In this document: one piece after another, positions 2,503 to 22,627 of the stretch | Position numbering within the stretch: position 1 is the stretch's first letter | Layout of the letters: each line of letters opens with the position of its first letter | From: Bdellovibrio sp. | GTDB taxonomy: Bacteria > Bdellovibrionota > Bdellovibrionia > Bdellovibrionales > Bdellovibrionaceae | DNA: 64,000 nucleotides | Direction: 5' to 3' | NCBI GenBank assembly: GCA_036677065.1 | Contig: JAKFBS010000008.1 | Span: 32,001-96,000, forward strand | The notes under the pieces: model-generated | Database searches by the model: none | Told to the model about the DNA's origin: nothing | Seen by the model: only the letters and a program-made list of their open reading frames with translations | Program-made: the position numbers and the translations under genes

Positions 2503-2509
2503 AATTAAG

Positions 2510-4273: not shown

Positions 4274-4274
4274 C

Positions 4275-4637
4275 TTAGTGAACATACGATTTCACGGCGT
4301 TTAAAAACCTTTCAACATGGATGGGTTTTTCCAGTTGCGCAGCCACTTTCATAGCGGCGAGTGTTTCTTCGGGAATATTAGCTGCTGATAATAGAATGAT
4401 TGGAATAGAACTGATCTGGCTGTCTTTGCTGGCGTTATCGCAAAATGTTTTTCCGTCCATGACGGGCATCATGTAATCAAGGATAATCACTTTTGGTTTG
4501 TGACCTGATTTTAAAATCTCAAGTGCAGTTTTACCGTTTTCTGCCCGTTTGACGGTGTAGCCTTCGCCCTCGAGAAGTTCGGCGATGCATTCTCTTAAAT
4601 CTGGTTCGTCATCTATTAATAAAATATCTGATGTCAT
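4275..4637 (-). CDS. single-domain response regulator
   Basis: ILLIDD, D.MMP.MDG, KP receiver motifs. Confidence 0.9.
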   Translation of the reverse strand: MTSDILLIDDEPDLRECIAELLEGEGYTVKRAENGKTALEILKSGHKPKVIILDYMMPVMDGKTFCDNASKDSQISSIPIILLSAANIPEETLAAMKVAAQLEKPIHVERFLNAVKSYVH

Positions 4638-6871
4638 TGTGTTGGCAATTCTACGCTAAAGACAGAGCCTTGGTGAAGGGTACTTGTCACCCAAACTTTG
4701 CCTTTTAATGCGGTTACGATTTCGTTTACAATCCAAAGCCCTAAACCCAAACCTTTATAGCTGGTTTCGCTGACAGCGCGTTCGAATCTTTCAAAGATTT
4801 TTTTCTGTTTATCTTCGGCGATGCCGATACCCTGATCGTGAACTTCTAAAAGTACATTTTGATTATTGCGACGAAGATGAATTTCAATGGGTTTTTTGTC
4901 GCCGTATTTGATGGCGTTTAAAATTAAATTTGTAATAATCTGTTCAAGTCTGAACTCATCCCAAAGACCAGTGATATCGGGTTCAATTTTTTTAATTAAA
5001 ACACAGCCTAACTTGGTGATTTCATCTTCAAATTTTTTACTTACATTTTCAACTAAGTTAGAAATGTTAACGTTAGGTTTTAAGTCTAGACGCATATGCC
5101 CGGCACCTATGCTGGTTACATCGAGTAAGTTTTTAATTAGGCTTTCAAGACGATCACCTTGCAATTTAGTTTTTTCAATCTGGGCCAAAAGTTTTTCTTT
5201 ATCAATAACGCCATCTAAAGATTTTGCAATAACGTATAAAGATAACTGTAATGTCGTCAGCGGAGTTTTTAATTCATGGGTGGCCACGGCAATAAATTCG
5301 TCGCGGGCATTCAATGCGCTTTTAAGATTATTTTCTAGCAGTTTTCTTTCGGTGATATTTTGCAGGGTGCCAGCCAAGCGAATAGGACGGCCTTCAGAAT
5401 CCTGTTCAATGACTGCGCCACGCGCGACAAACCAGCGCGGGTCGTTGCCGTTAGCCAAGCCTTGAAGATCGACTTCGTACGCACCACCGGTAGCAAGGGC
5501 TTCAGCCACCGCAACACTTAGTCTTTTCCAAGACTCTTCGGTGTAGAGTTTTGACTGTTCAACAAAAGGCAGGGGTGCAGATTCAGGATCTAAACCCAAA
5601 ATATCATAGATTTCTTGCGACCAATGAACGGTGTCGGTTTTTGCATCCCACTTCCAGCTTCCCATTTGCGCTACGTGCTGGGCGTAAACCAGATCGGCTT
5701 CGTTTACGGCAATTCGTTCTTGGGCCAATTTAACCATTCTTGCAGTTTCAAAATGTCGTAAAATAATAGAAACCAGGTTGGCTGCATGTTCGATGGTCTG
5801 AATATCGCGGGCTGACGGAGAATGTTGTACGGCATGATAGATCGCAAACGTGCCCAGCACTTCACCGGTAAGGGATTTAATAGGCTGCGACCAGCAAGAA
5901 GCTAAGTTTGCAGCTTTTGCCAGTTCACGATAATTAGCCCAAAGCGGATCGTTTTGAATATCATCGACGATGATTCTTTTACCTAAATAAGCGGCTGTTC
6001 CGCACGAACCAGCACTGGCACCAATATCTAAATGCGGGATGGCTTCGTTGTAAAAGCTGGGAAGCTTAGGGGCATAGACTTTTTCAAAGCGCTTTTTATC
6101 TTTATCAAGAAACAAGATGCTGCAAGTTGTATCGGGGTTAAGATCTTCGAAAAAGCCGATCAAGGTTTTATAAATCTTATCTAGCGGTTCTTTGTTAGAA
6201 AGTAATGTTAAAATCAGATTTACAAAGTGCTCTTGTTGCGAATCTTTTTTTTGCAGTGCTTTGTTGGTTTTTTTTAGCTGCAATTGAAAAGCAATATTAT
6301 CCAGTAATTGCCGTTTTAAAAAAACGTACTGCAGCAGGGTATAGATAATAAAAACGGCATAAGTGACAAAAATATAATTCGAATGGGCGATATCACGATT
6401 TAGCGAATGAATAGATACGCCAATCAGTGACGCAAACACCATCGCCAAAGTCGGAAAAAACAGCGTCGCATCAAGAGCTAGGGTAAAAATTGAATTCGCG
6501 ATGAAGCCACCCAGAAATGCAAAAAGCACAAAATAATGCGGGCTTGTCGGTTCGATATTAAAAACAGTGATCGTCAGGATGAGCGCAAGTAAAATGGCAT
6601 TAAGCCAATGGGTCAGTTTTGTGATAAACCAATAGTTTTCGTTTTCTGAAGCTTCAAGAAATTTATTTGAATAATAAACGCGAACACCCAATGACAGAAC
6701 AGTGATCACAGAACAAACCAAGATTATGACCTTATAGGTGGGTATGGCGAAAGCAAAATACACTGATAGCAGAAGCAGAAATAAAGTCGCCAAAGAGGCT
6801 CTGACATTACGCTTTGCTATTTCTTTTTTAATCAGTAGCAAAGTCAGCTTTGCATCTGTCACTTCTGTCAT
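4634..6871 (-). CDS. membrane GAF/PAS sensor histidine kinase
   Basis: N-terminal TM helices, GAF (GSCGTAAY), PAS, HELKTPLT, NAIKY, DQGIGI, GLGLGL. Confidence 0.93.
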   Translation of the reverse strand: MTEVTDAKLTLLLIKKEIAKRNVRASLATLFLLLLSVYFAFAIPTYKVIILVCSVITVLSLGVRVYYSNKFLEASENENYWFITKLTHWLNAILLALILTITVFNIEPTSPHYFVLFAFLGGFIANSIFTLALDATLFFPTLAMVFASLIGVSIHSLNRDIAHSNYIFVTYAVFIIYTLLQYVFLKRQLLDNIAFQLQLKKTNKALQKKDSQQEHFVNLILTLLSNKEPLDKIYKTLIGFFEDLNPDTTCSILFLDKDKKRFEKVYAPKLPSFYNEAIPHLDIGASAGSCGTAAYLGKRIIVDDIQNDPLWANYRELAKAANLASCWSQPIKSLTGEVLGTFAIYHAVQHSPSARDIQTIEHAANLVSIILRHFETARMVKLAQERIAVNEADLVYAQHVAQMGSWKWDAKTDTVHWSQEIYDILGLDPESAPLPFVEQSKLYTEESWKRLSVAVAEALATGGAYEVDLQGLANGNDPRWFVARGAVIEQDSEGRPIRLAGTLQNITERKLLENNLKSALNARDEFIAVATHELKTPLTTLQLSLYVIAKSLDGVIDKEKLLAQIEKTKLQGDRLESLIKNLLDVTSIGAGHMRLDLKPNVNISNLVENVSKKFEDEITKLGCVLIKKIEPDITGLWDEFRLEQIITNLILNAIKYGDKKPIEIHLRRNNQNVLLEVHDQGIGIAEDKQKKIFERFERAVSETSYKGLGLGLWIVNEIVTALKGKVWVTSTLHQGSVFSVELPTQ

Positions 6872-6959
6872 TTTGACCTCGCGATCAAACTTAACATTGT
6901 TTTAGGTGTTTGCCTACGCCATCCGACAGAATTTTTACAAAACGGGGCAGGAGTGGACT

Positions 6960-7886
6960 TTATTTATTTAAGCACGGCGTCGGTATAAAATACGGCTGGC
7001 CGTTTTTATCAAGCATTGAAATTTTAACTTGCGCGGGGTTATTCAGATCGACTTCTTGATAATACTTACGGTATTTGCGACCTAATTTTTTACGAACTAG
7101 ATTTTCAAAGTACACTGCGCGGTATTCGGTGACGTCATTGGCCTCCATATCATCGCCAATAACGCCGCGACGATCGACAAGGCCACGTACGCTATCAAAG
7201 CTATGAAAAAGTTCATGCGCGAATGCTGCAACCGCAGGAACAGGGCGTGCGACATGATCGCTTTCAATATACATTGTGTCTTCAGCATTCGGGTCAAAGC
7301 GCACGAAACCGCCTGCTCCGAATTGTTGAAACGTGCGACGTGGGTCTGCACCTTTTCTTAAAGTCGCAAAGTACTGCATAGCCGTAGATTCATCTAAGCC
7401 TGAATTTGGTTTGCCAGTGCTTCCGACAAATTCAAAGCGCGGGCCGCCAGTTTGTGTAAGTGTGATGGGGTATAACCCTTGCTGTAATAACGAGATCAGT
7501 CTTTCACCTTCAGGAAGCGTGCGAAGTATTTCGATTAAACCTAGAACTGCTTTTGTGTAATCATCTGAAATCTTAGCGATCTGTTGGCCCTTATGATCGA
7601 ATAAGGTGCCATCGATATAGGTTATTAGTTTGTTATTTCTAGAATTTAAAATTTTAAGCGAATCTTTTTTTGGGTTTGATTTGACTAGATCGGGTAATAG
7701 GATTTTTTCATTGCCGTTACAGGTGTTTAATTCGATCGCGTCTTGGTTGATCGAGATTTTTGATTTTAATTCATCGTGCGTCCAATTGCGAGAATCATTG
7801 GCTTCGCGTATCTGAAGGGTGTAAGGCGCGGGTGGAGGGTTTTGTGCGAAAGCTGTTGCTGTGGCTAAGATTAGAATTAAAAACAT
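6960..7886 (-). CDS. secreted HEXXH zinc metallopeptidase (M91/NleD-like), paralogue 1
   Basis: signal peptide, HELFH, EYRAVYFEN.VR..LG..YR.YY. Confidence 0.6.
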   Translation of the reverse strand: MFLILILATATAFAQNPPPAPYTLQIREANDSRNWTHDELKSKISINQDAIELNTCNGNEKILLPDLVKSNPKKDSLKILNSRNNKLITYIDGTLFDHKGQQIAKISDDYTKAVLGLIEILRTLPEGERLISLLQQGLYPITLTQTGGPRFEFVGSTGKPNSGLDESTAMQYFATLRKGADPRRTFQQFGAGGFVRFDPNAEDTMYIESDHVARPVPAVAAFAHELFHSFDSVRGLVDRRGVIGDDMEANDVTEYRAVYFENLVRKKLGRKYRKYYQEVDLNNPAQVKISMLDKNGQPYFIPTPCLNK

Positions 7887-8707
7887 TAGTCCTCCGAACT
7901 TTCGAAAAGTATTTCTGTAATTTCTTTGTGGAAATCTCGCGGTTTCGGGGGATCAGCTCGGTGTTGGCCCATCCACCAGAACCCGGTTTCTTTAGCGATA
8001 AGCCATTTGTCGAAATCTATGAATTTTAAACGTTTGTTGGCGATCATGAAATCCATGTCCATGACTGTTAAGCCAAGATCTAGAAATGCGGTGGTGGCTT
8101 GTTCGATTTGTGCTTTCATCTGCGGAGTAGGTTCTACGGGTTTGTCTGGGTTGTGGCCTTTTTTATGATATTCAGGATGAATGCGCTCCATGATGACTAC
8201 TGCTGAATACGGTGTGGTTTGTATATTTGCTGATTCGAACCAGTGTGCTGCTTGGTTTTCTGCGGCGAATCCGTAAGGCTTGGGGCCGTAGCCAAGTGTG
8301 TGAACTGCGTCCATGACTGCGACTGATTGGTTTACTAATGCTTTTACAGCTTTTTGAATAGTTTCAGGTGTGGCTTCTGCTAATTGATTACGTAAAGACA
8401 TTGCGTAGTAAAATTTGACGACAATTGGTTGGCCCTTGTAAGTACCGAAACGGACTTCGCCGTCGGCGCCGCGCTCGGTATCTTTTAGGTTTGCTTCCCA
8501 TACGATGTCTTCAGGGCGTAGCTTTGTTTCGTATGTGAGGATTTCGGGATGGAATTTTCTAAGTTTAGTGTTGGCTTTTTCTAGGCGCGATTCGAAAGTT
8601 ATTTTTGTTACGGGAGCGGTTTTTTTAGCGTCTGAAAAAAGCGCTGAACATTGGTTTGCGAAAGATGGGGAACTTAGCAAAATAGGAAGTAACATTAAAA
8701 ATCTCAT
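7886..8707 (-). CDS. secreted protein-kinase-like fold protein
   Basis: likely start MRFL (8707) with signal peptide; GADGEV Gly loop, VVK lysine, IMERI hinge, IDFD. Confidence 0.55.
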   Translation of the reverse strand: MRFLMLLPILLSSPSFANQCSALFSDAKKTAPVTKITFESRLEKANTKLRKFHPEILTYETKLRPEDIVWEANLKDTERGADGEVRFGTYKGQPIVVKFYYAMSLRNQLAEATPETIQKAVKALVNQSVAVMDAVHTLGYGPKPYGFAAENQAAHWFESANIQTTPYSAVVIMERIHPEYHKKGHNPDKPVEPTPQMKAQIEQATTAFLDLGLTVMDMDFMIANKRLKFIDFDKWLIAKETGFWWMGQHRADPPKPRDFHKEITEILFESSED

Positions 8708-8870
8708 AATGAGACTGGCTGCAGATTGTGATGAGATTTTTACGAAGCTTTGCATACCCAAATTCTTTGCGAAGTTTGGGCCTGTTATAGCTGGTAGGTT
8801 ATATATAATAGGGCGTGAGTGAGAACTAACCGTTAAGTGACGCTATTTGTTTTACAGAATTGTGTTAATT

Positions 8871-9692
8871 CTAGCCAATGACACTTTTTTTATGATCGAC
8901 ATTATTAACTTTAAACTTTTTAATCACGGCGATAAATGCAGGACCATATTTTTGGTACTTCCTTGGACCGATAGTTTTTAACATCAGCGCATCGTTATCA
9001 GGCATAACCTGGGCCATTCTGTGCAATGTTTTGTCGTAAAATATCATATAAGCCGGATTGTTTTCTTCGCGAGCAATTCGTAGTCTTTCTTTTCGTAATT
9101 CTTCAAAAAGAAGATTGGAATCGTATGCATCAGTAGGTGAATCTGTAGTTACTATCTCTTCGTTATGATTGTTCGAGAGTTCGGTAGGTTTTTCTATTAC
9201 TCTAGATTTTTCAGAAAAAATTTGTTCCAACAAAATGCCGTCGTAGTCATTAGTTAAAATTTGTCTTTGATGTTTAGGGTGTGGGTATCTTCCTGTTTTT
9301 GTTCTTTTCCAGCTTAGCCATGAATGAAACAACTCGTGTTTATGGGAATCCATTAAACAGAGATTAATTATAGAATTGTCAGTTCTTCTGCCATTGATAT
9401 GATGGACAACCTCATTAGGTTTTAAATCACGATTCAAAAGTTGTTTTGCGATGTACCGATGTGCGAGTTCATTTTCTTTTACTAAAACTACATATCCTCT
9501 TTCGTTGACATATGTTTTCGAGGCTTGGTTGGATGTGATGTTCATCCAAATACACCAGACAATAAAAGCGAAGATACTTATGATTACATTTACATAAGCA
9601 GGTAAAGTTGAAGCTAGAAGTACAAGGCTGCTAATTGCTACAAGGGCAAATAGGGCTTTTACTTGTTTTATTGTTCGATTAAGCTTGCGCAT
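8871..9692 (-). CDS. membrane-anchored HNH endonuclease-HRDC fusion
   Basis: two N-terminal hydrophobic helices; AHR...VVHHING...DN...NL (HNH_3-like); C-terminal LFEELR..R..IAREEN.PAYMIF.DKTL..MA (HRDC). Confidence 0.8.
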   Translation of the reverse strand: MRKLNRTIKQVKALFALVAISSLVLLASTLPAYVNVIISIFAFIVWCIWMNITSNQASKTYVNERGYVVLVKENELAHRYIAKQLLNRDLKPNEVVHHINGRRTDNSIINLCLMDSHKHELFHSWLSWKRTKTGRYPHPKHQRQILTNDYDGILLEQIFSEKSRVIEKPTELSNNHNEEIVTTDSPTDAYDSNLLFEELRKERLRIAREENNPAYMIFYDKTLHRMAQVMPDNDALMLKTIGPRKYQKYGPAFIAVIKKFKVNNVDHKKSVIG

Positions 9693-9768
9693 GATAAGTT
9701 GCTTATCGAATTGTAAAGGTCTTATCTACATCGGACCTTTGTCTTGTAAATAATTTTAAATTGGGTCG

Positions 9769-10734
9769 CTATTTCAAGCATGGGGTCGGCATTAAATAAG
9801 GCTGACCTTTTTTATCAAGCATTGAATCTTTAGCTTGAGCGGGATCATTTATATCGATGTTTCCGTAATATTTACGGTATTTGCGACCTAGGTGTTTACG
9901 GATTACGTTTTCGAAGTACACTGCGCGGTATTCAGTGACTTCCGTGAACTCCATACCTTCGCCATTGACGCCACGACGATCCATTAGACCGCGTACGCTG
10001 TCGAAACCGTGAAAAAGTTCGTGGGCAAATCCCGCTAGTACTGGTGATGATCTTGTGACGTTATCGCTTTCGATGTTTGCTAAGTTTTTAATGTTTGGAT
10101 CGAAACGTACGAAGCCGCCGGCTCCGAATTGTTTGAATGTTCCGCCTTGTTCATCGCTTTTTCTTAAAGTTGCGAAGTGCTGCATGATCGGGGCTTCGTC
10201 GTAGCCTGAGTTTGGTTTTCCGGTGCTTCCTACGAATTCGAAGCGTGGTCCGCCGGTTTTAGTTAGGGTAATTGGGTAAAGCACTTGTTGTAATAATGAG
10301 ATAAGTCTTTTGCCTTCGGGGAATGTGCGAAGTTTTTCGAGGAAAGCTAGAACTGTTTTTGTGTAGCTGTCTGAGATTGTGTTTGGTGCGATTTGTTGGC
10401 CTGCTTCGTTGAATAAGATGCCGTCGATGTAGGTGATTTTTTTGTTTGTGGTGGCGTTTAGGATTTTAAGTGAGTCTTTTTTTGGGTTTGATTTAACTAG
10501 ATCGGGTAGAAGTAGTTTTTCATTTCCATTACATTTATTTAAATCGATTACATCTTGGTTGATTGAGATTTTTGCTTTGATTTCTTCGTAGGTGAAATTA
10601 CGGAAGTGGTCGTTTTCGAAGAGCATTAAGGTGTAAGGGCTGGGTGGAGGGTTTTGCGCGAAAGCCGCCGTGGTAGCGAAGCTGATTGCTATGGATAAAA
10701 GTATAAATCGAACTAAAATCATGCGGTCCCCCAT
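9769..10734 (-). CDS. secreted HEXXH zinc metallopeptidase (M91/NleD-like), paralogue 2
   Basis: signal peptide, HELFH; collinear with 6960..7886. Confidence 0.6.
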   Translation of the reverse strand: MGDRMILVRFILLSIAISFATTAAFAQNPPPSPYTLMLFENDHFRNFTYEEIKAKISINQDVIDLNKCNGNEKLLLPDLVKSNPKKDSLKILNATTNKKITYIDGILFNEAGQQIAPNTISDSYTKTVLAFLEKLRTFPEGKRLISLLQQVLYPITLTKTGGPRFEFVGSTGKPNSGYDEAPIMQHFATLRKSDEQGGTFKQFGAGGFVRFDPNIKNLANIESDNVTRSSPVLAGFAHELFHGFDSVRGLMDRRGVNGEGMEFTEVTEYRAVYFENVIRKHLGRKYRKYYGNIDINDPAQAKDSMLDKKGQPYLMPTPCLK

Positions 10735-10877
10735 AATTGAAAGTTAACAAATTATAGGGGCGGAAAAAATGGTTTGTATAGAATAATAATTTTAAAGCAT
10801 CTTGTTGCTCATTGCAGCAGGTGTGAGTTGAATGAATCAACCTTCAGACTTTTTAAGGTGTTATTGATCTAAGCTGT

Positions 10878-12239
10878 CTAGACATCTAAAAAAGACAGTA
10901 TTTCATCGCCGCATTGTGAGAATGCATCTGGTGATCCTTGAAAACAATAACCAATCGTTATTCCATCATGTTGGAATATATTAATTTTATTTCGCGATAG
11001 GATGCGTTTTTTTTCTGAAAGATGCTTCATAGACTCTATATAATTATCAGGTAAGATTGTTCTAGTGATCCCAAGTGATTGCCAGGGAATGTCATTTATT
11101 TGCATTCTAGCTTCGCCAGCTGAATCAAATTTATCGGGACTTAGAAATCCAATCCAAAGTATTTTGGTGTGAAGTCCAATTTCTGCACGATGCGAATGTG
11201 CTCGTTTTATTATTTCATTTACATGTTTATCGCCACCACTGTATCCAACTATAAGCAAAGTGTTACTATTTATTAAATCTTCAAACAGTTGAGTGAAATA
11301 TGTGGCGAATGGTTCGTGCAGAATTGCATCTGCTTTTCGTAAACCCGTAATCATGAGTTGGCTTATACCCTCAATGCCATCTTGGGCAAGATGGTTACCT
11401 ACGGCTGTAGTGGCTCTATTTTCTAAAGCTGTATCATGATCTGGCAGTCTTACGATCAAACCTCGTGAGTCGCCATTGCCTGAGTTGTATCCGAATCGAC
11501 TAGAGCCATGAAGCTGACAAAATAAATGCGCACGATAAGAAGAACGAATATCAATCGGATAAAATGACTCTTCTAAACTGGTCGGGCTAGATTTTTTAAA
11601 TCCGGAAACAAAGTTAATCCCACTATGTAATGGTAGTGTGTCATAATTTAATGTAAAGAGGCGAAGATAGCTTTTAGATGAAAGTTTTTTGAATAATTCA
11701 TTTAACGGGTCTTTCTCGAGAATTCCACTTTTTGTGATGTTCCTTTCTTCTATAGCAAAAATATCAAGAATGTATGTACAAGCATCAGAAGCGACTACAT
11801 TGTGAATGCGGTTATCCAACCCGATATGCTTTTCGGATATGGGAGTCAAAGGTCCCGAACCAACTTTAACATAATCGTTGGTCTCTTCTGATGCGCTTGT
11901 TGTATGATAATCTAAGCTTTGCGCAACATGAATAAGTCGTTCAAAATGCAAAAATGGTTCTGGGTTTTTAAACGATGGCATAAGGAAGTTATACAGCTCT
12001 TGAAAGTAAGGTGTTTGTCCTGTTAAACCATCTACTTCTGTCGCAATTTGCGGATATGAAAACACCATATTAGATTGCCGGGGCATATTATGCTTCGTCC
12101 AAGTTTTGAGTTTGTCTGTGACTGCAGTTGTTCCGCTTAAATGATTAACCGAAGCACCAGATCCAAGTAAAATGGTAGTCTGGTTGCCATGAATGGCTTT
12201 CGAGAAAAATTGAGCAAATTTTTTAGTGAAATGACTCAT
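10878..12239 (-). CDS. SIR2-family (SIR2_2-like) protein, probable NADase
   Basis: LLGSGAS, FTLNYD, QLHGS, LIVGYSGGD.HVN motifs. Confidence 0.85.
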   Translation of the reverse strand: MSHFTKKFAQFFSKAIHGNQTTILLGSGASVNHLSGTTAVTDKLKTWTKHNMPRQSNMVFSYPQIATEVDGLTGQTPYFQELYNFLMPSFKNPEPFLHFERLIHVAQSLDYHTTSASEETNDYVKVGSGPLTPISEKHIGLDNRIHNVVASDACTYILDIFAIEERNITKSGILEKDPLNELFKKLSSKSYLRLFTLNYDTLPLHSGINFVSGFKKSSPTSLEESFYPIDIRSSYRAHLFCQLHGSSRFGYNSGNGDSRGLIVRLPDHDTALENRATTAVGNHLAQDGIEGISQLMITGLRKADAILHEPFATYFTQLFEDLINSNTLLIVGYSGGDKHVNEIIKRAHSHRAEIGLHTKILWIGFLSPDKFDSAGEARMQINDIPWQSLGITRTILPDNYIESMKHLSEKKRILSRNKINIFQHDGITIGYCFQGSPDAFSQCGDEILSFLDV

Positions 12240-12495
12240 TGGATACCTGCTTTAGAAGTTAGTCAGAAAATTTCATCACATTTAATAAGATTTTAGAACT
12301 GTAAATTTCCATTTGCTTCATTAGATCGACCGTTTTTTATATTAATTATATGAGTTGCCAATTTTGAACCAAAAATAACAAGCGGTACAGACTAAGGTAG
12401 TTAGTGAGCAAAATAATCCTGAACATTTAAGTAAAACTCATATAAATATAGATATATTTATAATTTAGCGTAATTGCAGTATAGCAAGGCGATAT

Positions 12496-14301
12496 ATGTC
12501 CACAACAGCACGATTTAAGGTATTACGATCAAAGGAAATCGAAAAAATATTCAGCAGCAATAATTTGAAAGAATTGTGGCGAAGCGAGGTAAAAAATATT
12601 TTGCGTAAGCAGGATCTTTTGGATTTACATGATTACTACGATTTTAATCGCAGTATTCAGAGTCATGCCGCGGACATCGAAGCTGAAGTTTTAGGTGGAA
12701 GATACCGACCGGAACCTCCATTAGTCTTCAGATTGGAGAAAAAAATGGGCATATGTAGACATATGTGTTTGCCTACGCCAACGGACTCTTTGGTCTTTCA
12801 AGCTTTAACAAATGCACTAGAAAAAAAATTACTCGCTGCTGCTCCAAATACCAGATCTTTATTCTCTAGGACTCATGCTAGGTGGCAGCTACCTCATGAA
12901 CACGGCGAGCCAACAGATTACCCTTGGTTTATTAAATGGAAGCGTTTTCAAAAACAGATTTGGAATTTTTCTAAGGAATATGATTATTTAATTGTCACAG
13001 ATCTAGCAAACTATTTCGACTCGATAGGTCTACGCGAATTAAGAAATGTAATTGCAAGTCATGTTAAATCTGAAGAAGTAATTCTGGATCTTTTATTTAG
13101 AGTAATTGAAGGTATGAGTTGGAATCCAGATTATCTGCCAAATAATATGCGCGGATTACCTACTATCAATTTGGATGCGCCGAGGCTCTTAGCGCACAGC
13201 TATCTTTATGAAATCGATTCGGTCTTGGAAAGTTCGTCATCAGGGAGTTTTGTAAGGTGGATGGATGATATAAATATTGGAGTAAACGATAAGATTACGG
13301 CGAAAAAAATAATTTCACAACTGTCGGATGTATTGAAAAGCAGAGGACTATCCTTAAATGTTTCAAAAACTAATATTTTATCGACCGAGCAGGTTAAAGT
13401 CGAATTCATGGTAGATGAGAATACATATTTGGATGAAATTCAAAAAATAAAAAAGCCTACGCAGATTAAAATACGTGAATGCAATAAAAAGTTTAACAAA
13501 ACGCTGAAGGATTCAAGTCCTAAAGCTTGGCAGAAAGTAGTTAAAAGATATATCGCATTGGGCGGTACATATAAGCTGAAGTCATTGGATAAAAAAATTC
13601 CTGAATTGTTTTTTGATTACCCTGATATGAGATCGAACATTATTTCTTACCTTTCATCGCAAAATCCAGATACTGAGCGTTTGGAAATATGGAAATCATT
13701 AGTTAAAAACGAATACTTAGATGATATAACTCAATTTAATTTGGCAAAATTGTTTACACAATGGGAGTTGCCTATAAACAGTGAAATAAAAGACTGTATA
13801 CAGTTTTATATCGAGCAAACGCAGCATTCGGATCTATTCGGTGACCAGCTAGCTGGTTTGTGGGTAAGGGCTAAATATAGCGAACCAGAAGAGCTATTAA
13901 AATACTTTAAAAAATATGAAAATTTATGGAAACATAATAAGTTTCTCGCGCGACAAAACATTTCAGCAGTTGCGAGATTGCTTCCATGGAAAAAAAATGA
14001 AACTCAAGCTATACTGAATAGTTATGTAGTTAATAGTTCAAAAGATGTAAGTTCTGTTGCATCCAACCTGCTCAGTTTAAGTAATTTAGATGTGATTCCG
14101 AGAGACGTATCTTTATATGTATTCCCTACTTCGGGTCATAAAAAAAATTATCCATTGTATAAATATTTAATTTTATCAGCAGTGTTGACAAATGATTGCG
14201 CGAAAAACAATTCTGGAATTAAAGCTGGATTGAATAAATATATTACTGATCCTTGGTATAAGAAATGGATTAATGAGTACGCTTCGGGACACTCATTCTA
14301 A
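12496..14301 (+). CDS. reverse transcriptase, UG/Abi (DRT-like) type with long C-terminal extension
   Basis: K..G..R...LP...D.LVFQ, TDLANYFDSI, GLP...APRLLA, RWMDD, GLSLNVSKT; ~300-aa C-terminus that looks helical; no maturase or retron VTG motif seen. Confidence 0.9.
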   Translation: MSTTARFKVLRSKEIEKIFSSNNLKELWRSEVKNILRKQDLLDLHDYYDFNRSIQSHAADIEAEVLGGRYRPEPPLVFRLEKKMGICRHMCLPTPTDSLVFQALTNALEKKLLAAAPNTRSLFSRTHARWQLPHEHGEPTDYPWFIKWKRFQKQIWNFSKEYDYLIVTDLANYFDSIGLRELRNVIASHVKSEEVILDLLFRVIEGMSWNPDYLPNNMRGLPTINLDAPRLLAHSYLYEIDSVLESSSSGSFVRWMDDINIGVNDKITAKKIISQLSDVLKSRGLSLNVSKTNILSTEQVKVEFMVDENTYLDEIQKIKKPTQIKIRECNKKFNKTLKDSSPKAWQKVVKRYIALGGTYKLKSLDKKIPELFFDYPDMRSNIISYLSSQNPDTERLEIWKSLVKNEYLDDITQFNLAKLFTQWELPINSEIKDCIQFYIEQTQHSDLFGDQLAGLWVRAKYSEPEELLKYFKKYENLWKHNKFLARQNISAVARLLPWKKNETQAILNSYVVNSSKDVSSVASNLLSLSNLDVIPRDVSLYVFPTSGHKKNYPLYKYLILSAVLTNDCAKNNSGIKAGLNKYITDPWYKKWINEYASGHSF

Positions 14302-14361
14302 ATAGAATAATATTGTCATTATCTGGAGGAAGTGTGGATCGCACACGTAAACATATAACTA

Positions 14362-14967
14362 ATGGATGAACCACTTTATTTGCAAAGAAATTTTCAACAA
14401 AAAGAACATTTAGATTCTTTTTGCTCGGGAAATATTCGATTGGGCTTGGTGGAATCTTATAGGCTATCCACTGACGATACCAGGAAAAATCCGCGTGATG
14501 GGTATTTTTCAGGTGTGGTAAGCTCTTCAGACTCGAGAGCAGGTTTTTATAGCGCATCGTCACTTGGCCTTTTCTACATGCTATCATTTAGCACGCCTGA
14601 AACATCTAGTGTTGTTAGTGAAAAATACGGCTCACATTCAATTAGGATTCTTAATTATAAACTGCTTTTTCAGAAAATTATAAATCAGCTTGGAATTGAT
14701 TTTGTTGATTTTAACTTTCACAGCAGAGTTGAGTATAAAAATAATTTAGATAAACCACCAGAAACGTATGATTTATTTTTTACTAATGGAATATCTCATT
14801 CCGAAAATTGCGAGTATCGCTTTTTGTATCATCTAAAAAAGTGGCCTGAGCCAAATGCACATGCATTTCTAACAGTCTCTACTGATGCTCAAGCAACAGT
14901 AGAGGGGAGTATTCTTATTCCCAAATATATAACAGTTAATGATGTTGATATGAATGGAATTATATAG
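14362..14967 (+). CDS. hypothetical protein downstream of the RT (weak DUF2971-like motifs)
   Basis: 201-aa ORF co-oriented 60 nt after the RT; LSFS..., V.Y, EYRF motifs. Confidence 0.6.
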   Translation: MDEPLYLQRNFQQKEHLDSFCSGNIRLGLVESYRLSTDDTRKNPRDGYFSGVVSSSDSRAGFYSASSLGLFYMLSFSTPETSSVVSEKYGSHSIRILNYKLLFQKIINQLGIDFVDFNFHSRVEYKNNLDKPPETYDLFFTNGISHSENCEYRFLYHLKKWPEPNAHAFLTVSTDAQATVEGSILIPKYITVNDVDMNGII

Positions 14968-15203
14968 AGGCCCATCAAAATACCAAATCAAGTGATAGCG
15001 AACGATTTTCTGAATAGTGTGATTTAATGAAAGGTGCTTAAATTCGCTAATCTAAATTAAAAAAACGTAGCTAAAGTCTAGTACAGTAACCCGTCAAAAG
15101 GTGTAATTTTAAGTAAAAAAAATTAATTAATAAAAATCTATTTAGAGATTAGTAGTTTGTCCCGAAATGATAACTAGATAAGCGTCATTTAGAGGAGCCA
15201 CGG

Positions 15204-16001
15204 ATGAGCAACATTGTTGATTTAGAAAAATTATTTCACCGAAGCAAAGACCGCATCAAAGATTTGGGCGAAGTATTTACACCAGAATCGTATGTTGAAG
15301 ACATGCTAAATCTACTCACAAAAGATAAACGAGGTCTTTGGTCAGATGAAGAAGTATCTTTTTTTGAACCATGCTCAGGTCACGGAAATATTGTCCTGCC
15401 AATTTACAAAAGACGACTTGAAGGTATCTACAAAAAAGCTACCACTCAGGGCTTGAGGTCAAACGAAGCCGCCTGGTATGCAGTAGCCAATGCTCTCAAT
15501 ACGTTATGGGCAATAGATATCGATGCTAAAAATGTCGAGAACTGTCGCTCCCGCGTGTTGTCGGCAACTCTAGAATTTTTGAAAAGTAAGCTTGATATAA
15601 AAAATAATCACATCCTTTTGTCTAAAAAAAGAGACTTTTTCGCTCATGTATTGTCCGCAATTAAATGGCACATAGACGAAAACGAAACATTATCTGCATT
15701 GAGTAAATCCGAAACAGCAAAGGCCAGCGCTAATCTTACTAGATCAGGAGCTAAGTGGTACTCGCAAAACGGCCACAATCCAATGAACTTTGATTTAACT
15801 TGGGTCAGCTTTTATGAGTCTTGTGAATCAACTAACGCTGTTCCGTTAGAATTTGAACGCTCACTTCGCTTTATTGACGGAGTTCTTTCCGGCAAACTTA
15901 GAGGTCTAGAAGATTTTGAATTCGCTAAAGCAGTTATTGATGTGAACAAGGTTCAAGAGGTTGTTCGCAAGCCGAACAGATCTTTATCCGTAGGTGCATA
16001 A
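15204..16001 (+). CDS. SAM-binding DNA methyltransferase-like subunit (no NPPY)
   Basis: GEVFTP (motif X), FEPCSGHG (motif I), AIDID; SD GAGGAG. Confidence 0.8.
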   Translation: MSNIVDLEKLFHRSKDRIKDLGEVFTPESYVEDMLNLLTKDKRGLWSDEEVSFFEPCSGHGNIVLPIYKRRLEGIYKKATTQGLRSNEAAWYAVANALNTLWAIDIDAKNVENCRSRVLSATLEFLKSKLDIKNNHILLSKKRDFFAHVLSAIKWHIDENETLSALSKSETAKASANLTRSGAKWYSQNGHNPMNFDLTWVSFYESCESTNAVPLEFERSLRFIDGVLSGKLRGLEDFEFAKAVIDVNKVQEVVRKPNRSLSVGA

Positions 16002-17454
16002 GATGAGTGCTTTGGTTTTAAAACCCACAGCCCATGTTGTCGATGTTCTCGGCAATGTAATTGGCCGGGATCAGCCAATTCTTCGTATGGAGAAGGCCTT
16101 AGAAATGGTTTCTGTATTGGGCGAAGATGTTTTTTCCGACGACAATGTCGTTTTTTTTGATCCATTTTGCAAAGCTGGCGAGCTACTTTTGGCTTGCGCA
16201 TTTCATAGTTGTTGGTCCAAATCCAAAGGGAAATCCCAATTGTTGGATATGGAAATGGTCTTCAAAGAGATTTACCAATCCAATCGTTACTATGGACTTG
16301 CCCCAGACGAAAGACATCACCGTCTTAGCATGAGAACATTTTTAGGAAACACCCATTCTCACAACGAATCATTTAATCAGATTATTCGAGACGGGCATTA
16401 CTTATCAGAAATCGACGGAAGATTAGATAAAGAAAAATTTGAAAAGGAGTTCATTTCTATGATCGATTACATTGACCAAAAATCTAAAGGTAAAAAAATT
16501 ATTGCCGTTGGCAACCCACCTTACCAGGAGAATGATGGGGGTCATGGAGGTAGTGCAAAAGCGGTTTATAACTTGTTTACTGAAGCTTTGATGGATTCAG
16601 AAAAAATATCAGAATTTGTTCTAGTTATACCATCTAGATGGTTCACGACAGGAAAAGGCGCAAAGGATTTTAGAGAAAGAGTTATTAGATCTACTACTAC
16701 TAAAACTCTACATCACTTTCTCAACTCGAAGTCCGTGTTTCCAACTGTAGATGTTCAGGGCGGTGTCTGTTTCTTTCATCATAAGTCAGACTACAACGGA
16801 GAAACCCAGTTTATCATGGACGGAAGTTCAACGATGGTAAATCTAGGAAGATTCGATATTATTCTAGATGATCCAAATGGCTATGATCTTATTGCTAAAG
16901 TCAAAAAACACTGGTCTGGTGATTTTGTGTCAAAAATTGCATGGACAGTCAGACCCTGGGCTATTCGCACATATTACTTTGAAAGAAAGAAGCCACTACC
17001 TGATGGGCATAAGAATGCAGTGCCTTGCTTTTCCAAGCGAAGAAAAATAATGAATGCCGACATAAAAGATATACCAAAAAATATTGATAAAATTGAAGAA
17101 TGGAAAGTCGCTGTTCCGAAAGGCTATTCGCTTGGATCTCGCCGAGTTACTTTACCAACGACTCAATTTTTCATTGTTCCGAAGGGACACATTACGACCG
17201 AAACATATAATATCGTTGGATCATTTAAGAAGAAATCAGAAGCTGAAAACTTCAGAAATTATCTTGCAACTAACTTCGGTAGGTATTTCTTAGGACTTAG
17301 AAAGGTCACGCAAGATATATACAAAATGCAGTGGGACTGGATACCGTTGGTTGATGTTTCGCAAGAGTGGACTGATGAAAAACTCTTTAAGATGTTCAAA
17401 ATTACCAAAGAAGAGCAAGAGCATATTGCGAAGAAATTAAAAGAGTGGTCATAA
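15994..17454 (+). CDS. Eco57I-like N6-adenine DNA methyltransferase with C-terminal target-recognition region
   Basis: FFDPFCKAGE, VGNPPY, VIPSRW. Confidence 0.88.
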   Translation: MHKMSALVLKPTAHVVDVLGNVIGRDQPILRMEKALEMVSVLGEDVFSDDNVVFFDPFCKAGELLLACAFHSCWSKSKGKSQLLDMEMVFKEIYQSNRYYGLAPDERHHRLSMRTFLGNTHSHNESFNQIIRDGHYLSEIDGRLDKEKFEKEFISMIDYIDQKSKGKKIIAVGNPPYQENDGGHGGSAKAVYNLFTEALMDSEKISEFVLVIPSRWFTTGKGAKDFRERVIRSTTTKTLHHFLNSKSVFPTVDVQGGVCFFHHKSDYNGETQFIMDGSSTMVNLGRFDIILDDPNGYDLIAKVKKHWSGDFVSKIAWTVRPWAIRTYYFERKKPLPDGHKNAVPCFSKRRKIMNADIKDIPKNIDKIEEWKVAVPKGYSLGSRRVTLPTTQFFIVPKGHITTETYNIVGSFKKKSEAENFRNYLATNFGRYFLGLRKVTQDIYKMQWDWIPLVDVSQEWTDEKLFKMFKITKEEQEHIAKKLKEWS

Positions 17455-17457
17455 AAA

Positions 17458-19923
17458 ATGGAACAACTCGAACTCTATGCTTATACAACCGAAGAATACA
17501 TAAAAAAGGGTTGGATTAAGGTAGGTCATACAAAAGTCGGTGAAGAGCGGATTTGGAATCAGTTTGGGACATCCAATCCGGAGAATCCCGACTACCAAAT
17601 GATTGGCCTACTTACAGAGGGCTTTCGGGATCACCATATTCATGCTCAACTAATAAAAAATGGTTGTAAGAAAATCGAGAATGTACCAGGCCAAGAGTGG
17701 TTTGAAGCAAAAAATAAAAGTGATCCATTTAAAGATGTCCGCAGGGCTTATAACGAAATTGTAAATGGAAGCTCAAGAACTGAACACTACAAACTTCGCA
17801 AAGAACAATTGGGAGCCATAGATAAAGCAAGTAAATGGTTTAGTAAAGAATATCCCGCTGAAGTTATCGGTTCAGCGACACACTCGAATCGATTTTTAAT
17901 CAATGCTAAGATGAGATTTGGTAAGTGCTTTACCAGCATTCATTTAGCGAAAAGAATTAATGCGCGTAATACATTGATCGTCACCTATAAGCCCGATGTA
18001 ATTGGCGAATGGATTGATACCGTCAATGAACAGGTCGATTTTAATGATTGGACTGGAATTCGAGCAAAGCACAAACCGGACAGGCCCGCTGATCCAAGCT
18101 TAAATGAAGACGGCGAATTCCCACGAACAAGTGGACCCATAGTTTTGTGTGTTTCTTTGCAAGATCTTTGGATTGACGAAGATGGAAATACAAAAGATCG
18201 ACTTCATAAAATTTTAGAAATCGCGTGGGATCTAGTCATTTTTGACGAGGTTCATTATGGAAGTCGTACCGAGCGAGCTAAAAGTATTCTTGAAAAAATA
18301 GTAGGATCAACGACACATCGACTTGATTTGTCAGGAACGCCTTTTAGACTTATTGAGCAAGACGATTTTTCATCTCAGCAAGTTTACACATATAGCTACC
18401 TTGATGAGCAAAAAAATAAAAAAGCAGAGGTTGAAACTGACCCGCAGGAGCTTGGCGAAAAGGTGTATCGACTTATGCCTGACCTCAACATTTCGGCTAT
18501 TGAAATTACAGACGAAGACATTGCTGAACAGCGGGAGACATTCACTACGGACGATATTGATTTTTCTCTAAATAGGCTTTTTGAAACTAATGAAGAGGGA
18601 AAGTTCGTTTATGAAACCGCAGTTGATCACTTTATTGAGGGATTAACAAAGTCAGGACATGAAGCTCGCTCAATCAGCGTATTTGGAAAGCTTGGTTCTC
18701 AACTTGGATGCCCGGGATTAAAAAGGCATACTGTTTGGTGGATTAATCGTGTTGATTCAATCAAAGCGCTGATTGAAAAACTTGAGAATCACCACCACTT
18801 CTCAAAGTTTATTTTAATAAATGCTTCCGGAAGCGATGCTAAAAAATCTGATGACGATGACAAAATCATGGCCAAAGAAAAGTCATCAGTGCAGAAAGCT
18901 ATCAATTCAGCAAATGAAGATCCTACTAAACTAGGAACAATTACTTTCACTTGCGGAAGATTTCTTACTGGGGTCACTATCAGAGAGTGGGATAGTATCC
19001 TCATACTAAATGATATTCAGTCCGCGGAGTCTTATTATCAGGCGATATTTCGAGTTCAATCAGCATGGGTGAATGAAAAGGCAAAAGAGGTATTAAAGCC
19101 TAAAGCTTGGGTTTTCGATTTTGCGATAACTCGGTGTCTGCAAGTAACCTATGGCTGTGCGAGCAATATTGCCGATCAGGTTGATCAACAGGAAAGCTTC
19201 GAACAAAGGGTCGATATAAATAAAGACAATCTCGAAATTATAACTGAAGGTCTTTGCGACACTTTGAACATAAAGCGATTTTATGAAGGTAGCCTGGTCA
19301 GCACACCTACTACCGCTAAGGATATTTTTGAGGTTCTTAATCATGAGGGTTCTCGACTTGCTCTCGCTCGACGAATCACCTCAAATGTTTTAGTGAATTT
19401 TGGAAAATTAAAACTTTTGGAAGAATATCCTCACATACTCGAAATCCTTGAGAAAGTTAAAGGATATCGTACTAGTGAGTTTAGTGCCACAATTGAAGAC
19501 TTCGTGCAAATTGGAAGAGATGCGAGTGATTTAGAGCAAGTAAAAGCTGATCCCAATCTTACTCAAGATGAAAAAGAAAAAATTATCGAGGACTTTGCGG
19601 AAAAGGATCAAGACGAAGAAAGACAAACCAGAAAAAAATGGTATGCAACTCAGATTAAGCGACTCGCTATCTGTATGGCGGATTTCATCTATATGACCTA
19701 CGAACGAGAGTATAATATTGACGATGTCATCCAAACAAAATCTCCTCAGTTTTTTGAGGTAATGACCGGCATTTCCAAGAACGACTTTGTTGAACTTTGC
19801 GATAAGGGTTTTATGAATCGTTTCGCTCTCAATCGCATCGTTAGAGAGTTTCGAGATCAAGAAAACACTTCTATAAGTCCAGAAGAGTACATCCTTGAAA
19901 ATCTCAAAAAAATGGTTTCATAG
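17458..19923 (+). CDS. T5orf172/GIY-YIG-like nuclease fused to SF2 (ResIII-like) helicase
   Basis: N-terminal LYAY...WIKVGHT...ERI; AKMRFGKC Walker A variant, DEVH, LSGTP, GRFLTGV, Y.QAIFRVQ. Confidence 0.85.
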   Translation: MEQLELYAYTTEEYIKKGWIKVGHTKVGEERIWNQFGTSNPENPDYQMIGLLTEGFRDHHIHAQLIKNGCKKIENVPGQEWFEAKNKSDPFKDVRRAYNEIVNGSSRTEHYKLRKEQLGAIDKASKWFSKEYPAEVIGSATHSNRFLINAKMRFGKCFTSIHLAKRINARNTLIVTYKPDVIGEWIDTVNEQVDFNDWTGIRAKHKPDRPADPSLNEDGEFPRTSGPIVLCVSLQDLWIDEDGNTKDRLHKILEIAWDLVIFDEVHYGSRTERAKSILEKIVGSTTHRLDLSGTPFRLIEQDDFSSQQVYTYSYLDEQKNKKAEVETDPQELGEKVYRLMPDLNISAIEITDEDIAEQRETFTTDDIDFSLNRLFETNEEGKFVYETAVDHFIEGLTKSGHEARSISVFGKLGSQLGCPGLKRHTVWWINRVDSIKALIEKLENHHHFSKFILINASGSDAKKSDDDDKIMAKEKSSVQKAINSANEDPTKLGTITFTCGRFLTGVTIREWDSILILNDIQSAESYYQAIFRVQSAWVNEKAKEVLKPKAWVFDFAITRCLQVTYGCASNIADQVDQQESFEQRVDINKDNLEIITEGLCDTLNIKRFYEGSLVSTPTTAKDIFEVLNHEGSRLALARRITSNVLVNFGKLKLLEEYPHILEILEKVKGYRTSEFSATIEDFVQIGRDASDLEQVKADPNLTQDEKEKIIEDFAEKDQDEERQTRKKWYATQIKRLAICMADFIYMTYEREYNIDDVIQTKSPQFFEVMTGISKNDFVELCDKGFMNRFALNRIVREFRDQENTSISPEEYILENLKKMVS

Positions 19924-20031
19924 AACTTGGGGATATTTTAAATATCATTTGTGTAATCCAAAGGCTCTTGAGCTCGCACTGGATTTGAAAAAAAATATTC
20001 ACGCGGCGTTATCATTCTGCTTGTAGCGCAG

Positions 20032-20736: not shown

Positions 20737-20757
20737 ATGTCACCAAATAGTATATCA

Positions 20758-21753: not shown

Positions 21754-21815
21754 TTCGAGACGTCATAATGCATTTTAACGATATTATTTTTTGCTGACAG
21801 CTATTTCGTTTATAA

Positions 21816-22241: not shown

Positions 22242-22282
22242 AAAAAATTGCTCGGGCACGCGAATCCAATCCCAAAAACCTA

Positions 22283-22600: not shown

Positions 22601-22627
22601 TGTTAAACCTGAAAAAGAAGAAAAATT

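Follow-up and report, generated by a model that had tools for sequence, protein, structure and literature searches.

The class 1 Abi reverse transcriptases (RTs) AbiK, AbiA and Abi-P2 perform protein-primed, untemplated DNA synthesis, according to the available part of PMC12632851, which also describes DRT10, a system of UG17 RT, SLATT and ncRNA in which the class 2 RT shows tight RT-SLATT co-evolution and the ncRNA is required. Sir2 proteins are NAD+-consuming effectors of defence systems, as stated in the accessible part of PMC13069673. The UG13a group was named by Mestre et al. 2022 (PMC9226505), where it is separated from UG13b by length and where, in the text available, its defence prediction is given as “inconclusive”; the corresponding PADLOC model is PDLC03749 RT_UG13a. 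This was the only paper found in our literature search on UG13/UG13a. Membership in UG13a by itself gives no mechanism.

A 64,000-nucleotide stretch of Bdellovibrio sp. DNA (hereafter, the window) contains three adjacent genes: a SIR2 gene (10878–12239, minus strand, 453 aa), an RT gene (12496–14301, plus strand, 601 aa) and a small ORF (14362–14967, plus strand, 201 aa). The SIR2 and RT genes diverge from a 256-nt AT-rich spacer (12240–12495), and the 201-aa ORF follows the RT on the same strand after 60 nt; these positions and spacers are exactly as given in an earlier, sequence-only reading of this DNA. That reading proposed that the three genes form one system, with the RT gating the SIR2 protein and/or the 201-aa ORF, and named independent neighbours as a fallback. 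We find the fallback likely (probability of roughly 0.7): each of the three genes would be a module of its own, and their proximity would result from stacking in a variable defence island.

The island, which holds the three genes together with other defence-type genes, extends approximately from 6300 to 22300, and its right boundary is a tRNA-Gln gene (22628–22703, minus strand). An R-M-like operon (15204–19923) and PDC-S14 (20758–21753) are located in the same island. The closest same-genus genome (G137) is syntenic with the window at 200–6265 and 22282–23803 and carries ca. 9.4 kb of different cargo between the syntenic blocks; the locus is a variable slot adjoining tRNA-Gln, the cargo of which is swapped in that genome.

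The SIR2/RT spacer shows no sign of a structured RNA: its RNA fold z-score is +0.88, and 162 of 200 shuffles fold as well or better. No Rfam family, including group II intron and retron msr/msd, was matched at E ≤ 1 in the region 9000–17000. Promoter-like sites are not enriched between 10500 and 15400 (15 observed vs. 18.4 in shuffles), no terminator-like site was found between the RT and the 201-aa gene, and there is no cas gene among the scanned flanking ORFs.

A UG13a-type reverse transcriptase

The best PADLOC match of the RT is RT_UG13a (E 2.4e-194, 645.6 bits), with RT residues 3–593 aligned to model positions 2–587 of 589, and the result was reproduced in a whole-genome profile search. 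The runner-up model, RT_UG21, scored 133.4 bits and was followed by UG19 and UG20, while the UG13b model (430 positions) gave merely 115.5 bits; the length of 601 aa likewise fits the UG13a side of the UG13a/UG13b split. By its sequence, the RT can be assigned over its full length to UG13a, a named UG/Abi group, in agreement with the proposed UG/Abi type. Pfam RVT_1 matches residues 158–301 (38 bits, cut-off 29.6). The RT core spans approximately residues 20–340 and is followed by a conserved C-terminal extension of ca. 260–300 aa running to residue 601, as had been pointed out from the sequence. Motif C is WMDD (residues 255–258); D169 of motif A and W255-M256-D257-D258 are invariant in 22 aligned homologues. 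The 119 RT homologues listed are 556–641 aa long, all but three having at least 593 aa, and their alignments span 92–100% of the RT. The C-terminal extension is conserved in homologues of 595–641 aa, the alignments of which cover 97–100% of the RT, apart from two less extensive ones (92 and 94%).

The RT is thus similar to other UG13a proteins in its full-length profile match, its size of ca. 600 aa, its RT core with a conserved C-terminal extension and its intact motifs A and C; the group is patchy across many phyla and has no fixed neighbour. It differs in its identity to the retrieved members, which is 31–47% over the full length (44–47% for the best, with no relative above 47% full-length identity found), and in its tree position, an isolated long branch close to the base of the main clade. 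The tree, which is midpoint-rooted, contains UG13a-like RTs only, namely the window RT and those of 59 of the 80 UG13a loci described below; the other 21 loci, with RT translations outside 540–700 aa, and other UG groups were left out. A search of 181 further genomes from the family did not find the RT.

VTG and NAxxH are signature motifs of retron RTs. Neither is present in the window RT, which scored 19.5 bits with the retron St85 RT model (cut-off 235), and the Rfam search gave no match. A group II intron is rejected by a TIGR04416 score of 80 bits (cut-off 300) and the lack of an Rfam intron match at 9000–17000, and a DGR by the lack of a template/variable repeat in the same region, where the search yielded just three direct repeats, all of them short, AT-rich and of low identity. 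The statement that retron, intron and DGR features are missing is therefore borne out by motif, Rfam, NCBIfam and repeat searches. The RT also scored below the NCBIfam cut-offs for Drt5 (48.9 vs. 550 bits), Drt4 (31.7 vs. 450 bits) and Drt3a (30.2 vs. 200 bits). Like AbiK, AbiA and Abi-P2, it combines an RT core with a C-terminal non-RT domain in one large polypeptide, no RNA component was detected here, and the runner-up PADLOC groups UG21, UG19 and UG20 are placed in class 1 in the available text of Mestre et al. (PMC9226505), where this class is characterised by an alpha-helical repeat (alphaRep) domain at the C-terminus. It differs from them in that sequence similarity is confined to the RT core (46.7 bits for AbiA vs. 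the NCBIfam cut-off of 250).

The SIR2 and 201-aa proteins

The product of the SIR2 gene was assigned to the SIR2 family from the sequence, and this is confirmed by a match to Pfam SIR2_2 (PF13289; 31.9 bits vs. the gathering cut-off of 24.5) and by the GSGAS (position 26), NYD (198) and LHG (243) motifs. N198, D200 and H244 are conserved without exception across 14 members of the family, and the catalytic core is, by these residues, intact. Only 15 other relatives were found among 5.8 billion clusters, and 389 further genomes from the class were searched without finding the gene. We consider the protein a predicted NAD+ hydrolase, a stand-alone member of a rare family of ca. 400–460 aa. It did not match housekeeping sirtuin families in NCBIfam. 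Its matches to the PADLOC SIR2 and Aga_SIR2 models are partial (ca. 60–170 residues, best E 6.4e-9), and among solved chains its profile retrieved 8w9l_A and 8yhx_G weakly (E ~1e-5).

Relatives with 26–32% identity were located in six metagenome loci, closer ones (P0123–P0133, 34–62%) lying outside this comparison. Their neighbours are varied and of restriction type (DpnII REase, Mrr, SNF2 helicase with Eco57I-type MTase and MZB, YaaC, LexA), all six readable loci have a defence-island context, and neither an RT nor a relative of the 201-aa protein is present in any of the six. The SIR2 protein shares this context, the SIR2_2-type domain and the conserved GxGxS, N-x-D and H with the SIR2 NADases of defence systems (Thoeris ThsA, DSR1/2, SIR2-HerA and pAgo-associated SIR2). 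Unlike those, it is a short stand-alone protein with no SLOG, HerA, Argonaute or TIR partner nearby, is covered by PADLOC models only in part and matches solved chains weakly. Thoeris was rejected, there being no ThsA among the 22 PADLOC families matched by the SIR2 protein at E ≤ 0.1 and no TIR in the scanned flanks; a pAgo-associated SIR2 of the SPARSA type was rejected as well, with an Aga_SIR2 match limited to residues 292–353 and no Argonaute among the neighbours.

The 201-aa protein has no Pfam, PADLOC or NCBIfam match, in agreement with its description as an ORF lacking annotation. A phmmer search over 1.84 billion representatives retrieved 16 distant relatives (best E 4.1e-31), which define a family of ca. 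180–240 aa with invariant F20, G23, R26, G28, Y33, R41 and G90, and the AF2 model is confident (pLDDT 86.4, pTM 0.84). From the relatives and the model, the ORF is a real gene. Foldseek gave no fold match at E ≤ 0.001. The best structural match (VIA) has Z 3.5 and rmsd 3.1 Å over 79 aligned residues; no chain reached Z 5, and Z under 8 may reflect merely a common arrangement. By title, ca. 14 of the 50 weak structural rows listed are ADP-ribosyltransferase-type proteins (Tpt1/KptA, DarT, diphtheria-toxin-like toxins, PARPs), and four further rows, which we take to be ART-like, would bring this to ca. 18 of 50. The model thus gives a weak lead towards an ADP-ribosyltransferase-like fold, although with the low Z and the empty Foldseek search it differs from established proteins of that fold.

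Members of the 201-aa family were inspected in four other genomes, the closest relative (P0138, 38% identity) lying outside this neighbourhood comparison. In G140, two tandem copies follow a PD-T4-6/Stk2-like Ser/Thr kinase gene after a 43-nt gap, HipBA is located nearby, and neither the window RT nor the window SIR2 has a relative in this genome. In G309, the member lies 66 nt behind YafQ-like and HTH genes and ahead of an integrase; in G364, it is 185 nt behind BrnT; and in G319, it is at a contig end, divergent from its neighbour. The gene is therefore co-oriented with, and closely downstream of, an enzyme or toxin gene in four of five contexts (the window, G140, G309 and G364), and an RT adjoins it in none of the four other genomes. 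The protein stands for a rare family that lacks annotation and, despite the confident model, an evident structural counterpart; its members occur in mobile and defence settings, behind varied toxin and defence genes.

Neighbourhoods of UG13a reverse transcriptases

The check set beforehand for the one-system proposal was whether close RT homologues are accompanied by either of the two neighbouring genes. We compared 80 UG13a loci from 80 species, with 398 ORFs within 3.5 kb of their RTs, and found co-occurrence with neither. A tblastn search of both proteins against the 80 loci gave no match at E ≤ 0.1 (one chance-level row had E 0.14), and the family profiles of the SIR2 protein and the 201-aa protein found no relatives among the 398 ORFs (best E 0.47 and 1.5, respectively). 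The proposal that the RT gates either neighbour is thus not upheld. The window RT resembles DRT10 in being a UG-family RT beside a separate effector gene, which is the design that had been proposed; it differs in co-occurring with neither neighbour and in lacking a structured RNA.

As can be seen from BLAST clustering of the flanking ORFs, no family is present in more than four loci, those in four all represent Nostoc synteny, and no neighbour is conserved beyond one genus among the 80 loci. PADLOC models were matched by 28 of 127 immediate neighbours, i.e., in 26 of the 73 loci with a callable neighbour, and belong to many unrelated systems: type I REase and specificity subunits, DrmMI, type III MTase, SLATT, TIR, one ThsA1-like SIR2, PD-DExK/NucC, dGTPase and several PDC candidates. 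Since defence genes are present in 26 of 73 loci and there is no fixed partner, a stand-alone defence role of UG13a is supported, and the group is a reasonable candidate for testing. Effector-type genes adjoining the RTs (SLATT in two loci, TIR-like in three, SIR2 in one and PD-DExK in two) are scattered across the RT tree. Such recurrence would be expected of a “one RT, swappable effectors” design, although genes of these types are frequent in defence islands.

Independent modules or one system

Relatives of the three genes never adjoin each other elsewhere (in none of the 80 UG13a loci, the six SIR2 loci or the four genomes with the 201-aa family), which makes it likely that they are independent neighbours. 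Because the RT is a long solitary branch with best relatives at 44–47% identity, a lineage-specific partnership would escape this comparison. One alternative would be a two-gene operon in which the 201-aa protein serves the RT as effector or accessory factor, the SIR2 gene being an unrelated neighbour. The common strand, the short gap with no terminator-like site and the position of the 201-aa family behind enzyme or toxin genes speak for it, as does a small (100–300 aa) co-oriented ORF directly downstream of the RT in 22 of the 80 UG13a loci. However, these 22 ORFs have no detectable similarity to each other, except for the near-identical L040/L041 pair, or to the 201-aa family, whose other members adjoin no RT in the loci examined; we regard the operon as rather unlikely. 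A system of all three genes, in which the divergently encoded SIR2 NADase is gated by the product or activity of the RT and the 201-aa protein may or may not take part, could draw on their physical adjacency and common spacer and on one UG13a locus (L069) where a ThsA1/Dsr2-like SIR2-domain gene of another subfamily lies 211 nt upstream of the RT on the same strand. SIR2, TIR and SLATT effectors are, furthermore, known as partners of other sensors, and effector swapping is described for AbiA and UG23 in the available text of Mestre et al. (PMC9226505). Against this, the SIR2 family is found in none of the 80 UG13a loci and an RT in none of the six SIR2-family loci, a SIR2 of any type makes up just one of the 127 immediate neighbours, and transcription from the spacer, which has no structured RNA, is divergent rather than operonic. 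No RT-SIR2 pairing was found in the literature, judged by titles and abstract starts; the RT itself belongs to a named group. Taken together, such a system appears quite improbable.

Equally improbable is that at least one of the genes has no defence function, being for instance a domesticated cellular RT or a regulatory SIR2 deacylase in a generic variable region. The “inconclusive” prediction in the available text of Mestre et al. (PMC9226505) and the 99 of 127 immediate UG13a neighbours with no PADLOC match would allow it, but the distribution is patchy and horizontally scattered, the island adjoins a tRNA gene, has its cargo exchanged in the nearest genome and also holds R-M-like and PDC-S14 genes, and the SIR2_2 type fits PADLOC defence models, not NCBIfam housekeeping sirtuins. 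An unlikely but more far-reaching possibility is that UG13a RTs are sensors that recruit adjacent effectors. The RT here would then have captured two partners that use NAD: the SIR2 NADase encoded divergently from it and, downstream, the 201-aa protein, whose fold would be new and distantly ADP-ribosyltransferase-like. In a sister genome, this small module would serve a Ser/Thr kinase as well.

If the three genes are independent modules, the UG13a RT would be a self-sufficient enzyme of anti-phage defence or abortive infection that, by analogy with class 1 Abi RTs, probably makes non-genomic DNA without a dedicated ncRNA. The SIR2 protein, which belongs to a very rare family of ca. 450-aa stand-alone proteins and has its catalytic core intact, would both sense infection and respond to it by depleting NAD+. 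The 201-aa protein would form a third, small module similar to a toxin or an effector. The locus then illustrates how a plausible-looking “new system” becomes defence-island stacking once co-occurrence is examined. A counterpoint is the arrangement of the RT and 201-aa genes on one strand with a gap of just 60 nt; as no terminator-like site was found in this gap, the two may be co-transcribed.

The reverse transcriptase and its two neighbors

The SIR2 gene occupies positions 10878–12239 of the minus strand and encodes a 453-aa protein, the RT gene lies at 12496–14301 of the plus strand (601 aa), and the gene of the 201-aa protein follows at 14362–14967 on the same strand. The SIR2 and RT genes diverge from a 256-nt spacer, 60 nt separate the RT gene from the 201-aa gene, and a gap of 236 nt precedes the next ORF. 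These positions and both spacers agree with the sequence-only reading, which had also identified the genes correctly as a SIR2-family gene, a UG/Abi RT and an ORF without annotation. The 453-aa protein scores 31.9 bits with the Pfam model SIR2_2 (threshold 24.5) and carries the motifs GSGAS (at residue 26), NYD (198) and LHG (243), which confirms its family. The RT passes the threshold of RVT_1, has WMDD as motif C (residues 255–258), and continues past its core for ca. 260–300 residues, the C-terminal extension of about 300 aa described earlier. Neither VTG nor NAxxH was found in its sequence, and no DGR-like repeat pair was detected between positions 9000 and 17000; the RT is thus free of retron VTG and DGR repeats, as had been claimed. 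Likewise, intron RNA and maturase are absent, since Rfam families gave no match at E ≤ 1 in the same region and the NCBIfam maturase score was far below its cut-off.

The PADLOC-DB model RT_UG13a matched the RT with 645.6 bits (E 2.4e-194), residues 3–593 aligning to model positions 2–587 of 589, and a whole-genome search returned the same single match. The next PADLOC models were UG21 (133 bits), UG19 (128) and UG13b (116). Scores were far below the NCBIfam cut-offs for Drt3a, Drt4, Drt5, AbiA and retron RT. UG13a is a group named by Mestre et al. 2022 (PMC9226505), where phylogeny and length serve to divide UG13 into UG13a and UG13b and the defence prediction for UG13a is given as “inconclusive”; the main-text passages of that paper on UG13, its supplementary neighbor-cluster table aside, name no partner gene for UG13a. 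Full-text searches for UG13/UG13a reverse transcriptases returned this one relevant paper, and the newest named DRT that we found is DRT10, which corresponds to UG17 (PMC12632851). Based on the full-length match, the published naming and the sub-cut-off NCBIfam scores, we assign the RT to a described group with an “inconclusive” defence prediction; it is neither an unrecognised type nor a characterised DRT. The UG/Abi assignment of the sequence-only reading stands. Judged by its sequence, the RT is a new, divergent member of UG13a.

A structured RNA upstream of the RT gene was considered and dropped because Rfam gave no match and the fold z-score was +0.88. Promoter- and terminator-like sites found by pattern scan were no commoner than in shuffled sequences and were uninformative.

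Genes adjoining UG13a reverse transcriptases

A protein search retrieved 526 relatives of the RT at E ≤ 0.001, the best 120 of which are mostly 595–640 aa long, 37–44% identical and spread over many phyla. An alignment of 22 relatives (A1) was used to collect loci from a one-genome-per-species collection, which yielded 80 UG13a loci from 80 species (31–47% RT identity over the full length, up to 52% in partial matches). With the SIR2 and 201-aa proteins as tblastn queries, these loci gave a single row, at chance level (E 0.14). A simple ORF-calling script then collected the ORFs that are 80 aa or longer and lie no more than 3.5 kb from an RT (n = 398), and these were clustered by BLAST. No family was present in more than four loci, the four-locus families were all due to synteny among Nostoc genomes, and neither the SIR2 nor the 201-aa protein joined any cluster. 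Family profiles of the two proteins (A2 and A3, respectively) did not match any of the 398 ORFs, the best E-values being 0.47 and 1.5. A small co-oriented ORF lies directly downstream of the RT in 22 loci; these ORFs show no mutual similarity except in one near-identical pair of loci. The sequence-only reading had proposed that the RT product may gate the SIR2 and/or the 201-aa protein as one anti-phage system, and had made this proposal depend on co-occurrence of RT homologues with either neighbor. No such co-occurrence was seen in the 80 loci by tblastn or profile search, and a joint system of RT, SIR2 and 201-aa protein is thus unsupported.

The immediate upstream and downstream ORFs (127, from the 73 loci with a callable neighbor) were compared with PADLOC at E ≤ 1e-5. 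Matches were obtained for 28 of these ORFs, in 26 of the 73 loci, and they belong to many unrelated systems. Among them are type I restriction enzymes (2), specificity subunits (2), DrmMI, a type III methylase, RT-associated SLATT proteins (2), TIR-like proteins (3, one of them weak), PD-DExK/NucC-like nucleases (2), a dGTPase, several PDC candidates and one ThsA1/Dsr2-like SIR2. These data support defence islands as the habitat of UG13a, a point that could not be settled in PMC9226505, and show that UG13a has no fixed partner. In a phylogenetic tree constructed with FastTree from 60 RTs (that of the window and those of 59 loci, the other 21 being left out for RT translations shorter than 540 or longer than 700 aa), the window RT forms a long solitary branch, and the loci with effector-type neighbors are scattered over the tree.

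The ThsA1/Dsr2-like SIR2 is located 211 nt upstream of the RT on the same strand (L069, 511–3051), on a contig of only 3.2 kb. One of the two RT-associated SLATT genes lies 68 nt downstream of the RT on the opposite strand (L010, 7853–8485), and the other 344 nt upstream on the same strand (L044, 2290–2985).

Families of the SIR2 and 201-aa proteins

The SIR2 family is very rare: 15 other proteins were found among 5.8 billion clusters, 26–62% identical and mostly 400–460 aa long. Residues N198, D200 and H244 are invariant in the family, and G26, G28 and S30 are almost so, by which the catalytic core appears intact. Searches of 181 other genomes of the same taxonomic family and 389 of the same class recovered no member, and viral contigs contained no relative. 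A metagenome scan retrieved six loci with SIR2 relatives of 26–32% identity (closer kin, at 34–62%, lie outside this set), and an RT or 201-aa relative was present in none of the six. The SIR2 genes are accompanied there by DpnII-type and Mrr-type restriction enzymes, a YaaC-like protein, a LexA-like repressor, an SNF2 helicase with an Eco57I-type methylase and an MZB/DUF559 protein, and unannotated ORFs. The setting at these loci is again a defence island with variable company, which would fit a SIR2 module that stands alone. At one locus (L085, 53–9332), genes for the MZB/DUF559 protein, the SNF2 helicase, a 1309-aa Eco57I-type methylase and a SIR2 relative (30% identity) follow one another in the same orientation, the methylase and SIR2 ORFs overlapping by 4 nt; this run may be a larger helicase–methylase system with a SIR2 tail.

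The 201-aa protein had no match in Pfam, PADLOC or NCBIfam, and a word-index search found no relative. An exhaustive phmmer search of 1.84 billion representatives retrieved 16 relatives, the best being 38% identical (E 4.1e-31), with an N-terminal signature in which F20, G23, R26, G28, Y33 and R41 are invariant. Whole-genome searches revealed the family in four further genomes of the class, in none of which does an RT lie beside it. In one, of the same genus (G140, locus L093, contig C6, 8967–11556), a 391-aa Ser/Thr kinase gene is followed after 43 nt by two tandem paralogues of 223 and 226 aa, which are themselves 20 nt apart. The kinase matches PADLOC mad6, Stk2 and PD-T4-6, and a HipBA pair lies just beyond the paralogues; kinase and paralogues may form a module of their own. 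Neither the RT nor the SIR2 of the window was found in this genome. In G309, the family member stands behind YafQ-like and HTH genes and ahead of an integrase; AbiEii and an IS are close by. At L101 of G364 (7529–8762), the ORF behind a BrnT toxin gene is not a short BrnA-type antitoxin but one of 256 aa, which resembles the family in its N-terminal part (E 1.6e-7). In G319, the gene lies at a contig end.

AlphaFold2 with the 16-sequence alignment produced a confident alpha/beta model of the 201-aa protein (pLDDT 86.4, pTM 0.84). Foldseek found no match to this model at E ≤ 0.001 in BFVD or the PDB, and in an exhaustive VIA-align search the best Z was 3.5, no chain reaching Z ≥ 5. By title, about 14 of the 50 listed weak VIA-align rows are ADP-ribosyltransferase-fold proteins, including Tpt1, DarT, diphtheria-toxin homologues, pertussis S1, PARPs, Scabin and CARDS; four more, which we take to be ART-like, would raise this to about 18. 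An ADP-ribosyltransferase-like fold is only a lead from the predicted model. The family profile returned from PDB sequences one chance-level row alone (E 0.22). DUF2971, suggested by an ESM Atlas score of 0.91 and carried by 21% of one cluster, was dropped because none of the 16 family members matches it in Pfam at E ≤ 1.

The island and the reading of the three genes

Flanking sequences 200–6265 and 22282–23803 are syntenic with the closest same-genus genome (G137) at 93–95% nucleotide identity, and between them ca. 16 kb in the window stand against ca. 9.4 kb of other cargo in that genome (L102, 2330–11776). The latter encodes a 1514-aa SF1 helicase with an MTES_1575/DUF559 nuclease domain, HSDR_N, MAPEG and glyoxalase-like proteins. 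A tRNA-Gln gene (22628–22703, minus strand) marks the right edge of the variable slot, and a search of 181 other genomes of the family did not recover the RT. Such a pattern is typical of variable defence hotspots that fill by horizontal transfer. Downstream of the 201-aa gene, three plus-strand ORFs at 15204–19923, joined by an 8-nt overlap and a 3-nt gap, encode a 265-aa protein with weak N-terminal methylase matches, an Eco57I-type methylase of 486 aa and a ResIII helicase of 821 aa. The 486-aa and 821-aa proteins align with separate sections of a single PADLOC type IIG model (PDLC03626), in the order opposite to that of the model, and the operon resembles an R-M-like system that has been split or rearranged. 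A PDC-S14 candidate follows (20758–21753, minus strand; 331 aa, GIY-YIG and DUF4357, PADLOC E 2.5e-79), adjoined by an unannotated 234-aa ORF at 20032–20736.

We consider it probable (ca. 0.7) that the three genes share no system and that an ordinary defence island holds the RT side by side with two rare modules of one gene each. A two-gene operon of the RT and the 201-aa gene is unlikely by comparison; in its favor are their co-oriented 60-nt junction and the position of the 201-aa family directly behind another enzyme or toxin gene in four of five contexts. A system that joins the RT to the SIR2, with or without the 201-aa protein, is also unlikely and draws on the effector-type genes that recur next to UG13a RTs. 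No close relative of the window RT was found, which leaves some room for either arrangement. That one or more of the three genes are not defence genes at all is likewise improbable.

Under the preferred reading of stacked modules, the UG13a RT would act alone. Its chemistry may be AbiK-like, i.e., protein-primed, untemplated DNA synthesis as described for AbiK, AbiA and Abi-P2 (PMC12632851); we hold this tentatively, at somewhat under even odds, as the likeliest chemistry because the spacer shows no structured RNA and the named groups closest to the RT belong to class 1. For the SIR2, the predicted role is NAD+ depletion upon infection, as outlined for Sir2 domains in PMC13069673; the 201-aa protein would form a small toxin- or effector-like module of its own.

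Contigs of four groundwater sequencing runs contain pieces identical to the island at low depth. In one run (X2), the depth over 5000–10705 and 22118–24000 is much higher than over 10706–22117, a stretch that no contig spans; this difference is not taken as evidence that a related strain lacks the island. In the left part of the island, an HNH + HRDC gene (8871–9692, minus strand) is flanked by Peptidase_M91-like paralogues (6960–7886 and 9769–10734). In related-strain contigs of the same run (depth 11–13), position 8859/8868 is joined directly to 9773 and the HNH-HRDC gene is missing; this gene behaves like a mobile insertion.
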